Virus record (IMG/VR): IMGVR_UViG_2531839233_000005
Coordinates: 1 to 4,571 of that record
From: a virus
Lineage: Duplodnaviria; Heunggongvirae; Uroviricota; Caudoviricetes
Length of the DNA stretch: 4,571 nucleotides
Reading direction: 5' to 3' (one strand)
In this document: piece by piece, positions 1-2,510 of the stretch
How positions within the stretch are numbered: position 1 is the stretch's first letter
How the letters are laid out: each line of letters begins with the position of its first letter
The notes under the pieces: model-generated
Database searches by the model: none
Told to the model about the DNA's origin: nothing
What the model saw: only the letters and a program-made list of their open reading frames with translations
Program-made: the position numbers and the translations under genes

Positions 1-44
1 GCTGATCCCTGGACGCCTTCCATTCTGATGTTTGACTCGCCCAC
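1..44 (-). CDS. Possible 5' end of first gene of a leftward early operon (partial, runs off window start); product unknown
   Basis: Minus-strand GTG at 44-42 preceded by GAGGA (reverse complement of 52-56) with 7-nt spacing; frame stays open to the window edge (VGESNIRMEGVQGS...). Only 14 codons are visible. Lies downstream of the predicted leftward promoter at 124-153. Confidence 0.25.
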   Translation of the reverse strand, partial: MGESNIRMEGVQGS

Positions 45-123
45 TGAGAAATCCTCTGCTTCCCCTTAACGCCGGGTAGCGGAACTGTTTGCTGAGAACA
101 CCGTGCGGTGTCTTGATGAGTAG

Positions 124-176
124 AATTTAGAATAGCCTAAGAGTTATGGTCAAGCTTTTTGTGTAGAAAAACCTAA
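124..176 (-). promoter_or_regulatory. PL-like leftward promoter with two operator-like palindromes (OL-like)
   Basis: Minus-strand -35 TTGACC (reverse complement of 148-153), 18-nt spacer, -10 TAAATT (reverse complement of 124-129). TTAG-aatagc-CTAA at 127-140 overlaps the -10 and spacer; gTAG-aaaaac-CTAA at 163-176 lies just upstream of the -35. Both share the motif found in the 661-727 operator cluster. Confidence 0.4.
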
Positions 177-251
177 GCTTCTTGATGTAAAAAACACAAG
201 TATTTGAAAGTTTGTGCTTTTTATTACAGAGAGTTGCGAAAAAAAGGGGGG

Positions 252-659
252 TTATTTATTTGCGCTTCTTTTGCGAGCTTTGAGTAGTTCTTCAAAAAGT
301 TTGTTGAAATTCTCAACTCGAGCACGCATCTCTGACAACAGAGCCTTTTGCTCTGACTCAGGCAGTGCGTCGAACAGTTGAAGCAACTCTTTTTGATCTT
401 CTGTCAGATTGACTGGCTGATTATCTGGGATCGGTTCGCCTGGTTGCTTATCTTCATCTCCAAAAAGAAGCCAAGTCGGCGAGCACTGAAGCGCCTGGCT
501 CAGTGCGAATAATCTCTTCCCCGCTGGCTGTGTTTCATCTCTTTCCCATTGAGAAATTGTTACGTGAGCGACTTTGACCAGCTTACCTAATGCGGCCTGA
601 GACAGTTTTAATTTTTTTCGCCTGTATAAGAGGCGAGCACCGAAGGTTTCGTTTTTCAT
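252..659 (-). CDS. dicA: Prophage repressor, DicA-like (XRE-family HTH, CI analogue), 135 aa
   Basis: Complete 135-aa ORF. N-terminal XRE-type HTH (LSQAALGKLVKVAHVTISQWERDETQP). Length and the C-terminal segment (LFALSQALQCSPTWLLFGDEDKQP ... ALPESEQ ... EMRARVENFNKLFEELLKARKR) match what I recall of E. coli Qin DicA. Divergent from a Cro-like gene. No SD upstream of the ATG. Confidence 0.85.
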   Translation of the reverse strand: MKNETFGARLLYRRKKLKLSQAALGKLVKVAHVTISQWERDETQPAGKRLFALSQALQCSPTWLLFGDEDKQPGEPIPDNQPVNLTEDQKELLQLFDALPESEQKALLSEMRARVENFNKLFEELLKARKRSANK

Positions 660-667
660 ATTAGGTA

Positions 668-696
668 ATTCTAATTTTTCTTGACTTAGGTTTCTC
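668..696 (-). promoter_or_regulatory. PRM-like promoter for the repressor gene, probably giving a leaderless or near-leaderless mRNA
   Basis: Minus-strand -10 TAGAAT (reverse complement of 668-673) ends 8 nt before the A of the repressor ATG (659). Weak -35 (GAGAAA, reverse complement of 691-696) at 17-nt spacing. The -10 is overlapped by the operator site at 661-674. No SD for the repressor. Confidence 0.35.
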
Positions 697-709
697 TACG
701 ATCTAGTTT
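681..709 (+). promoter_or_regulatory. PR-like rightward early promoter
   Basis: -35 TTGACT at 681-686, 17-nt spacer, -10 TAGTTT at 704-709 (TA...T conserved). Overlapped by operator sites at 686-699 and 710-727. Drives the Cro-like gene, whose RBS AAGGG (724-728) sits 7 nt before the ATG at 736. Confidence 0.4.
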
Positions 710-735
710 CCTTAGGAAAATCTAAGGGTTTCGAT

Positions 736-963
736 ATGTTGAAAATTGATGCTATAGCGTTTTTTGGCAGCAAAACAAAGCTTGCCAATGTCGCAGGAGT
801 TAGGCTGGCAAGCGTTGCTGCATGGGGGGAACTGGTTCCTGAAGGTCGCGCGATGCGCCTGCAAGAGGCATCCGGCGGGGAACTTCAGTACGACCCCAAA
901 GTTTATGACGAATATCGTAAGGCAAAGCGGGCGGGGCGGTTGAACAATGAAAATCACCACTGA
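736..963 (+). CDS. dicC: Cro-like regulator, DicC/YdaS family, 75 aa
   Basis: Complete 75-aa ORF divergent from the DicA-like repressor. Motifs typical of DicC/YdaS Cro analogues (FGSKTKLA..AGV..ASV..W, then GGELQYDPKVY). The symbol is assigned from synteny and recalled similarity, not from a search. Confidence 0.75.
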   Translation: MLKIDAIAFFGSKTKLANVAGVRLASVAAWGELVPEGRAMRLQEASGGELQYDPKVYDEYRKAKRAGRLNNENHH

Positions 964-1498
964 ACAGGTTTGTGAGGCTCTGGATACCTGGGTATGCCGA
1001 CCAGGAATGACACAGGAGCAGGCGACGATATTAATCACGGAAGCATTCTGGGCTCTGAAAGAACGCCCGAACATCGATGTTCAACGCGTCACGTTTAATG
1101 ATGGCGAGGTTGATCAACGGGCGCTGGGCGTTAACCGGGTGAAGATATTCGAACGCTGGAAAGCTATCGACACCAGAGATAAGCGTGACAAATTCACGGC
1201 GCTGATTCCGGCAATTATGGAGGCTATCCGGATCAGCGATTTCAGATTGTATTGTGAAATTACTGACGGAAAAAGCATTACGTACATGATCGCCGGGTTA
1301 AACAAAGAATATGGCGATGTGGTGGAGTCCGGGCTGCTTTTTGCGGATCCAGTTGTTGTGGAACGTGAGACTGACGAGCTTATAGAAAAAGCTATTGCTT
1401 TCAAGCACGCGTATCGTCAGCAATACCAATATTACTTTGCAGATAAACAAATGTCTGCCAGGGGGGCGTATGAGTATCGATGCACTACGATGGGCTAA
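947..1498 (+). CDS. YdaT-like protein (CII-analogous regulator / 'toxin YdaT' family), 183 aa
   Basis: Complete ORF starting at an ATG that overlaps the dicC-like stop by 17 nt. Sits immediately after the Cro-like gene, as ydaS-ydaT does in Rac and CP-933P. Contains the LIPAI motif and the MKI..E N-terminus I recall from YdaT. Longer than the roughly 140 aa I recall for K-12 YdaT. Confidence 0.55.
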   Translation: MKITTEQVCEALDTWVCRPGMTQEQATILITEAFWALKERPNIDVQRVTFNDGEVDQRALGVNRVKIFERWKAIDTRDKRDKFTALIPAIMEAIRISDFRLYCEITDGKSITYMIAGLNKEYGDVVESGLLFADPVVVERETDELIEKAIAFKHAYRQQYQYYFADKQMSARGAYEYRCTTMG

Positions 1499-2510
1499 AA
1501 AGGTGAAAACCGGCAGTTCATCCAGTAAGTCAGTATTGACCTGGCTTGCTGATATGTGCGGTGCCGATTTGTGTGCATACCCGTCTGTATCTGCACTGGC
1601 AGAAGTAACGGAACTGAACAAAAAGACTGTGCAGGACAGCTTACGACACCTGATGGAGATTGGGTTAATTGTTGATACCGGTGAGAGAAAAGGCAGAACA
1701 AAGCAAATTGTGGTGTACCGACTTATCGGTGTAGAAGAAAGTGTTGCCGAGCCTGAATACACCCAAAAACGGGAGTCTTTAAAGGTGGGTAAAATTGGTG
1801 CTGTTAATAAAAACAGTACCGAAAATGGTTATGTTTCAGCACAAAACAGACCCAAAAACAGAACTCTTAGCTGCATGGAAAATAACCAAAGACACCCAAA
1901 TTTTCCATCAAAGACACCCAAAAACGGATCACGGAACCCAAAGGAACCCAAAGATCTAAACCCCACACATAACGCACGCGAGAGTGCTCCGACCAGTGAG
2001 CAGGAAGTTTTGTCGTTACAGGCAGCCCCCCCTGTATTCCTGTATGGCCTGAGCGAACCCATCGGAAAATTCCCGATGAGCGATAGCTGGTATCCGTCAC
2101 GGGATTTTCGACGACGGGCTGCGTTGTGGGGGATGGCTTTGCCGGAGACAGAATTTACACCTGCTGAACTTGCCGCCTTCCGGGACTACTGGGCAGCGGA
2201 GGGGAAAGTGTTTACGCAGATTCAGTGGGAGCAGAAATTCGCCCGTCACGTAAATCACGTCAGGGCGCAGGTTAAACCAGTCAGCAAAGGGGTAAACCAT
2301 GCAGCAGCACCAGGTGGCACCGCATCACGGGCAGTTCAGGAAATTCGGGCAGCACGTGAGCAGTGGGAACGTGAAAACGGATTTATCAGCAACGGAAACG
2401 GCCTGGAAGCTGTGGGAACTCATGGGGGAGGTTTATTCGAACCGCTGGACCCAGAAGAACGGGGCCGCACCTTCGAAGCTCTGGATTGCCCAGATTGGTG
2501 CGATGACTGA
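1470..2510 (+). CDS. Phage replication initiator (O analogue): N-terminal HTH, low-complexity linker, DnaT-like C-terminal domain; 346 aa
   Basis: ATG at 1470 preceded by a G-rich SD (GGGGGG, 1461-1466); the TTG at 1395 from the ORF track is rejected. N-terminus MSIDALRWAKK...LIVDTGERKGR is typical of prophage initiator wHTH. C-terminal W..PS..F....W..F..W..KF..HV pattern resembles the DnaT ssDNA-binding domain. The linker is encoded by the iteron-like repeats. Confidence 0.8.
   Translation: MSIDALRWAKKVKTGSSSSKSVLTWLADMCGADLCAYPSVSALAEVTELNKKTVQDSLRHLMEIGLIVDTGERKGRTKQIVVYRLIGVEESVAEPEYTQKRESLKVGKIGAVNKNSTENGYVSAQNRPKNRTLSCMENNQRHPNFPSKTPKNGSRNPKEPKDLNPTHNARESAPTSEQEVLSLQAAPPVFLYGLSEPIGKFPMSDSWYPSRDFRRRAALWGMALPETEFTPAELAAFRDYWAAEGKVFTQIQWEQKFARHVNHVRAQVKPVSKGVNHAAAPGGTASRAVQEIRAAREQWERENGFISNGNGLEAVGTHGGGLFEPLDPEERGRTFEALDCPDWCDD
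1757..1953. repeat. Iteron-like direct repeats (candidate replication origin) inside the initiator gene
   Basis: CCCAAA cores at 1762-1767, 1851-1856, 1895-1900, 1917-1922, 1937-1942 and 1947-1952. ACACCCAAAAACGG is repeated exactly at 1759-1772 and 1914-1927. AAGACACCCAAA is repeated at 1889-1900 and 1911-1922. GGAACCCAAA is in tandem at 1933-1952. The four distal cores are spaced about 22, 20 and 10 bp. An AT-rich stretch lies at about 1786-1845. Confidence 0.5.

Follow-up and report, generated by a model that had tools for sequence, protein, structure and literature searches.

In E. coli K-12, the dicBp promoter of the Qin prophage is under the control of the repressor DicA: deletion of dicA raises its activity 22-fold and the Rem antirepressor raises it 165-fold, whereas deletion of dicC does not derepress it (PMC10448788). 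K-12 DicA is not cleavable by RecA and does not contain an Ala-Gly cleavage site (PMC10448788). In an in vivo assay, DicA bound the Oc operator (TTGTTAGTCATAACTAACAA), and this binding was abolished by an A-to-C substitution in the CTAA arm; no binding of DicA to Om and Oa was seen in that assay (PMC3441716), i.e., not every copy of the motif need be a strong site. For DicC, ChIP-seq in K-12 pointed to inferred sites on either side of dicA, with the motif TT(A/C/T)G...C(G/A/T)AA (PMC11430063). In 2020, the DicA site at K-12 dicBp was recorded as low-evidence, and its location was listed as unknown (PMC7567609). Another described system is CP-933P, a sister prophage from O157, in which a tested PL promoter with the operators OL1-3 is regulated by CI-like and Cro-like proteins (PMC8630535).

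The window (the whole stretch of DNA that was analysed, 4571 nt) opens with 251 non-coding bases, followed by a repressor gene on the minus strand, a 76-nt intergenic region, a DicC-like gene and, on the plus strand, a YdaT-like gene. Positions 1-800 are 100% identical to prophage Sp9 of E. coli O157:H7 Sakai, EDL933 and many other O157 genomes. We propose, with a probability of roughly 0.85, that positions 124-176 are the OL/PL unit of a DicA/DicC-type lambdoid immunity region and the orthologue of K-12 Qin dicBp. At the level of sequence, this assignment is carried by the operator sites and their non-random distribution, the promoter match, the positional homology to dicBp, the covariation of operators and repressor, and the left-arm genes of identical prophages. 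So read, the element is an ordinary, well-understood prophage switch, orthologous to a known regulatory unit.

The likeness to K-12 dicBp comprises a repressor of the same subfamily (62% identical to K-12 DicA), the TTAG-N6-CTAA operator core, the promoter layout, a near-identical leader, and dicF and dicB downstream. The two loci differ in the promoter spacer (18 nt here, 17 nt in K-12) and in the -10 hexamer (TAAATT here, TAATCT in K-12); furthermore, the present locus has a hairpin and a U-run before OL2, and both ydfA and ydfB have been replaced to the left of position 60. The sequences of the operator spacers also differ from those of Qin, although the arms are common to both, and the binding specificity may be shifted. 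With the PL933P promoter of CP-933P, the locus shares membership of an O157 prophage family, a right arm with YdaS/Cro-like and YdaT-like genes, and a leftward promoter that lies past the repressor operon, is accompanied by copies of the right-hand operators and is subject to CI-like/Cro-like repression (PMC8630535). However, CP-933P has a different repressor (PaaR2), another operator sequence and three OL sites instead of two, and it carries paaA2-parE2 between the repressor gene and PL, where the window has a 75-nt gap without a gene. The locus resembles the OL/PL regions of lambda and P22 in that its repressor gene lies between operator clusters, which would govern early promoters pointing in opposite directions; the core of the promoter is overlapped by the nearer operator, and the repressor and the Cro-like protein would bind common sites. 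Unlike those phages, which have three left-hand sites, the present locus has two, and its operator is a 14-bp core dyad repeated at a 36-bp spacing. In addition, the PL transcript of lambda carries nutL and encodes the N antiterminator; in the Sp9 left arm, no N-like gene is annotated and no nutL was recognised. Genes like rexAB are absent here.

The first-pass annotation had placed two copies of the TTAG-N6-CTAA motif at 127-140 (with perfect arms) and 163-176, had described them as overlapping a minus-strand sigma70 promoter, and had concluded that the repressor gene is bracketed by operator clusters as lambda cI is; each of these statements agrees with what we found. The motif search recovered TTAGAATAGCCTAA at 127-140, where the TTAG and CTAA arms are perfect; in the second copy, GTAGAAAAACCTAA at 163-176, one arm deviates at a single position (GTAG). 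A promoter scan of the minus strand identified the -35 hexamer TTGACC (153-148) and the -10 hexamer TAAATT (129-124), separated by an 18-nt spacer, which together match 9 of the 12 consensus positions. This is a moderate match with a spacer of 18 nt, and an alternative reading of the -10 element as CTAAAT would give a spacer of 17 nt. The predicted transcription start is the A at position 117 (minus strand), 7 nt past the -10 hexamer. The promoter-proximal operator, OL1 (127-140, TTAGGCTATTCTAA on the minus strand), occupies the spacer, and its right arm overlaps the -10 hexamer; the distal operator, OL2 (163-176, TTAGGTTTTTCTAC on the minus strand), lies upstream of the -35 hexamer, from which it is separated by 9 nt, and the starts of the two operators are 36 bp apart. 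No third left-hand operator is found in 1-251 even when two mismatches are allowed, and the term "pair" is therefore correct. On the other side of the repressor gene, the right-hand cluster (661-725) consists of three sites, at 661-674 (perfect), 686-699 (with a CTAC arm) and 712-725 (perfect), all located in the 76-nt region between the divergent repressor and cro-like genes, and these are the positional counterparts of Qin Oa, Om and Oc. The repressor gene is thus flanked by two sites on the left and three on the right, and the core of all five is that of the experimentally defined Oc operator.

This arrangement recurs in an aligned set of eight loci, which comprises the window, K-12 Qin and six further E. 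coli loci, represents at least five immunity subtypes and, for the six further loci, includes repressors that are 53-100% identical to that of the window. In all eight, the distal dyad (the position of OL2) is followed after 8-10 nt by a -35 hexamer (148-153 in the window, minus strand; TTGACC or TTGCCT in the set) and a spacer of 17 or 18 nt that contains the proximal dyad. The -10 hexamer (124-129 in the window; TAAATT or TAATCT in the set) is formed partly from the right arm of this dyad and is followed, 13-14 nt further downstream, by the invariant CACCGCACGG, again in eight of eight loci. Comparison of the three closest loci places the substitutions in the operator spacers and flanks and none in the arms or hexamers. 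The window region can be aligned position for position with the K-12 Qin dicA-ydfA intergenic region, the home of dicBp, which reads TTAGCTATAGCATA, 9 nt, TTGACC, gatatg, TTAGTCATGGCTAA, tcttg and onwards. Within it, dicBp consists of TTGACC, a 17-nt spacer that contains TTAGTCATGGCTAA, the hexamer TAATCT and then the matching leader, and OL1 takes the position that TTAGTCATGGCTAA has there. The stretch that the window has in common with heteroimmune prophages extends from position 118 to position 60, so that the border of the immunity-specific module coincides exactly with the predicted start, A117. From the sequence comparison, position 118 is both the edge of the predicted start and a typical border of an immunity module.

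The 59 nt at 60-118 (minus strand) form a conserved 5' leader of the leftward operon, which in relatives runs directly into the Shine-Dalgarno sequence and ATG of ydfA. The leader is matched in approximately 2800 E. coli genomes, across heteroimmune DicA-type prophages, and that of K-12 is nearly identical to that of the window (CATCAA(G/C)ACACCGCACGGTGTTCTCAGCAAACAGTTCCGCTACCC..GCGTTAAGGGGA). Its mean pairwise identity is 96.4%, compared with 89.2% for the adjacent ydfA. The ribosome-binding region TTAAGGGG lies about 12 nt before ydfA in relatives, and its reverse complement accounts for the TAA at 67-69. A convergent rightward gene ending at 67-69, the arrangement that the first-pass annotation had named as evidence against a leftward operon, can be ruled out, as no plus-strand ORF of at least 30 aa ends there and the bases are part of the conserved leader. 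Near its 5' end, the leader contains an invariant dyad, ACACCG-CA-CGGTGT (98-111, minus strand), for which a 6-bp hairpin closed by a tetraloop is predicted at approximately +7 to +20 of the transcript; this hairpin never varies. Folding of the whole leader gave no significant result (z = -0.37), only the short 5' hairpin being notable, and an Rfam search at E values up to 1 (Sp9 segment 4500-8000) returned no family in the leader, its only matches being DicF and STnc100, both further to the left. A tentative and rather doubtful extension would be that the leader (118-60) is a cis-acting RNA element through which the toxic dicBF-type early-left operon is controlled, at the level of stability, termination or translation, and that it passes between prophages independently of the immunity cassette, as a module of its own. 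If true, such separate exchange would explain why the leader is better conserved than ydfA across heteroimmune prophages.

The left-hand sites, although bound by protein, could instead serve mainly to anchor a loop or to titrate the repressor and thereby tune the switch on the right, i.e., repressor autoregulation and PR repression, with promoter hexamers that are weak or inactive in a decayed prophage. Although OL of lambda does enhance OR regulation by looping (PMC8630535), and although the promoter matches only 9 of 12 positions with an 18-nt spacer and the canonical first gene, ydfA, has been lost from this prophage, the -35 and -10 hexamers are kept at fixed positions in the heteroimmune loci while neighbouring bases vary, the homologous K-12 promoter is active and repressed by DicA (PMC10448788), and the leader downstream is better conserved than the coding gene next to it. 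We therefore consider a function mainly in looping or titration to be unlikely.

The OL/PL reading further depends on the regulators encoded beside the sites. The repressor gene (252-659, minus strand) encodes a protein of 135 aa that matches the NCBIfam DicA family, NF007257, over its full length (241.6 bits against a cut-off of 101). A Pfam search of this protein returned only HTH-type domains, of which HTH_3 was the best, and no match to Peptidase_S24; lambda CI, by comparison, carries an S24 peptidase domain at its C terminus and undergoes self-cleavage with RecA. The Cro-like gene (736-963, plus strand) encodes 75 aa and was assigned to the DicC subfamily by NCBIfam (NF007282, 167.6 bits against a cut-off of 130) and is also matched by P22_Cro in Pfam. 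It should be noted that the operator at 661-674 ends 1 nt before the ATG of the repressor gene and contains TAGAAT 8 nt upstream of that ATG, with no good -35 element. These features of the region 657-690 (minus strand) suggest that the repressor mRNA has no leader and depends on an activator, as has been reported of the lambda cI and paaR2 mRNAs, and that its promoter is weak and activated by DicA, as has been reported of K-12 dicA.

When the repressor differs, the operators differ with it. In strain CUVET18-1475, the recognition helix of the repressor reads GSSISLWES in place of HVTISQWER (H-V-(T/S)-(I/V)-S-Q-W-E-R in TTAG-type repressors). This locus has TTGAGTTTTCTCAA as its right-hand operator and, with unchanged placement with respect to the promoter, TTGAGTTTTCTCAT and ATGAGAAAACTAAA as its left-hand ones. 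Similarly, a further immunity type, with a 139-aa repressor, has its own dyad, TACCCAYAGGTA, on both sides of the repressor gene. The operators thus change with the repressor and on both sides at once, which is the behaviour expected of true left and right operators. The sites might nonetheless be used mainly by the DicC-like Cro protein and not by the DicA-like repressor, for example in turning down early-left transcription after induction. Indeed, the sites inferred from DicC ChIP-seq in K-12 lie on both sides of dicA and have a similar motif (PMC11430063), and in one in vivo assay DicA recognised just one of the three motif copies on the right (PMC3441716), but it is deletion of dicA, and not of dicC, that derepresses dicBp in K-12 (PMC10448788). 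The operator changes also track the recognition helix of the repressor, and we regard a role mainly for Cro as very unlikely. Moreover, the sharing of sites by repressor and Cro is the lambdoid norm, so that use by the DicC-like protein would be an addition to the OL/PL reading and not an alternative to it.

With no more than one mismatch allowed, TTAG-N6-CTAA occurs five times in the whole 4571-nt window, and all five sites fall inside its 327 non-coding bases. Dinucleotide shuffles of the whole window gave a mean of 1.14 matches and reached five in 2 of 200 cases, and shuffles of the 327 non-coding bases alone gave a mean of 0.19 sites and reached five in 0 of 20000. A motif-free repeat search of positions 1-800 returned 124-140/661-677 and 163-177/685-699 as its two top inverted-repeat pairs, which means that the left sites are near-copies of two right-hand sites: over the 14-mers, OL1 is identical at 12/14 positions to TTAGGTAATTCTAA (661-674), and OL2 at 13/14 positions to TTAGGTTTCTCTAC (686-699), the imperfect CTAC arm being common to both members of the latter pair. 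That the motif arose by chance in AT-rich intergenic DNA at 127-140 and 163-176, or survives there as a relic, with no present function, is strongly disfavoured and extremely improbable, for although two or more sites (with at most one mismatch) do arise in 0.9% of shuffles of 1-251 alone (179/20000) and the prophage shows partial decay (the zinc-ribbon gene nearby has a nonsense mutation), no shuffle of all non-coding bases reached five sites, the left sites are near-identical to specific right-hand ones, their position is conserved, and they covary with the repressor in a heteroimmune relative.

The stop codon of the repressor gene lies at 252-254, 75 nt from position 176, which agrees with the earlier estimate of about 75 bp. 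The accompanying statement that there is no slot for rexAB-like morons holds for this locus, where the 75-nt gap contains no gene, but is not universal, since paaA2-parE2, for example, occupies this place in relatives. One such relative, a prophage integrated at ompW with an identical P gene, has a paaR2-paaA2-parE2 module in place of the dicA-like gene, with the toxin-antitoxin pair occupying the slot between repressor and PL. In the window, the gap is occupied by an A/U-flanked hairpin followed by U6 (188-223, minus strand), for which folding gave -11.2 kcal/mol and z = -3.5, and which may be a weak, or bidirectional, terminator of the repressor transcript. A consensus terminator scan of 178-255 found no canonical intrinsic terminator after the repressor gene, and this candidate was rejected, only the weak A/U-rich hairpin with its U6 having been found by folding. 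The scan missed the hairpin because its A/U-rich stem contains too few G-C pairs. The hairpin is symmetric enough to act in both directions; in close relatives, its stem is kept and its loop is variable, and the heteroimmune CUVET18 locus has a different hairpin and T-run in the equivalent place.

Beyond the first 800 bases, the window remains identical to Sp9-type loci through position 2390 and then diverges: approximately 130 differences are present by 3150, and nothing aligns beyond 3111. The window encodes a 221-aa P-like protein that recurs, without any difference, in an E. coli ED1a prophage and in a PaaR2-type prophage, whose immunity regions are quite different. The switch of relatives at 2390 and the shared P-like protein indicate a recombination junction inside the replication genes, and by sequence comparison the window is a mosaic relative of Sp9-type prophages. 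Neither complete E. coli genomes nor phage records contained a match over its full length, an exact 50-mer had no hit in a collection of genome contigs, and prophages retrieved through exact protein matches had either the left part (1-2390) or the P gene in common with it, never the two together. The content of the left arm was read from prophages that are identical over window positions 1-2390, and the left flank of the window itself is inferred from these. In Sp9-type prophages, the left arm adjoins ompW and encodes, all on the minus strand, ydfC, a 135-aa ORF, a DicF-like RNA, dicB, a DUF1482/ydfD-like gene, a large exonuclease, xis and int. The expectation that the leftward arm would resemble the dicB operon of Qin was therefore well founded. 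The Rfam score of the DicF-like RNA of Sp9 (segment positions 5458-5507, minus strand), 43.5 bits (E = 1.9e-7), does not reach the gathering score of 48; DicB of Sp9-type prophages scored 127 bits in Pfam. The stretch between DicF and dicB in Sp9 (5264-5469, minus strand) also has a sub-threshold match to STnc100, of 32 bits.

The beginning of the leftward operon is less conventional. In this prophage, ydfA, the usual first gene, has been replaced to the left of position 60, and the leftward transcript would run antisense through a zinc-ribbon pseudogene for approximately 500 nt before reaching ydfC. A rightward zinc-ribbon gene of the ECs_2282 family lies approximately 90-290 nt to the left of the window (plus strand); it is intact in strain W60, and in Sp9 it is interrupted by an in-frame stop codon (E14*). 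The Sakai and PGAP annotations show a 99-aa antisense ORF at this locus instead (ECs_5719 / WP_001240336.1). As a candidate first gene of the operon, this minus-strand ORF was rejected: it has no family match, lies antisense to the zinc-ribbon gene that is intact in W60, and probably does not represent a genuine gene. Approximately 6 kb to the right of the window start, the right arm of Sp9-type prophages contains a Rem-family gene (PF27490, plus strand), and by analogy it is the obvious candidate inducer of PL, because K-12 Rem relieves the repression of dicBp by DicA.

For this prophage, we infer repressor binding, occlusion of the promoter, the point of initiation, what OL2 contributes and how induction comes about as follows. 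Dimers of the 135-aa DicA-like repressor would bind the TTAG-N6-CTAA dyad, and occupied OL1, located in the spacer and over the -10 hexamer, would exclude RNA polymerase. OL2 probably contributes through cooperative binding or through looping to the right-hand operators, and the DicC-like Cro protein probably uses the same sites as the repressor. Inactivation of the repressor would release leftward transcription from near position 117; a Rem-type antirepressor is the more likely agent than RecA cleavage because the repressor has no peptidase domain. The transcript would then comprise the conserved leader and the early-left operon, i.e., ydfC, the DicF sRNA, dicB, the ydfD-like gene, the exonuclease, xis and int.

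The arrangement described here is otherwise a textbook lambdoid one, and it leaves the general picture unchanged. What it offers is a map of DicA operators at a dicBp-type promoter, placed on comparative grounds, where the exact site at K-12 dicBp had been listed as unknown: a proximal site over the -10 hexamer, a distal site 9-10 nt upstream of the -35 hexamer, and a start at the edge of the immunity module. Both DicF, a small RNA, and DicB, a small protein, influence cell division; a link between DicF and the regulation of virulence in EHEC has also been made. Within this context, the locus marks, in O157:H7, the control point of one prophage copy of DicF and DicB.
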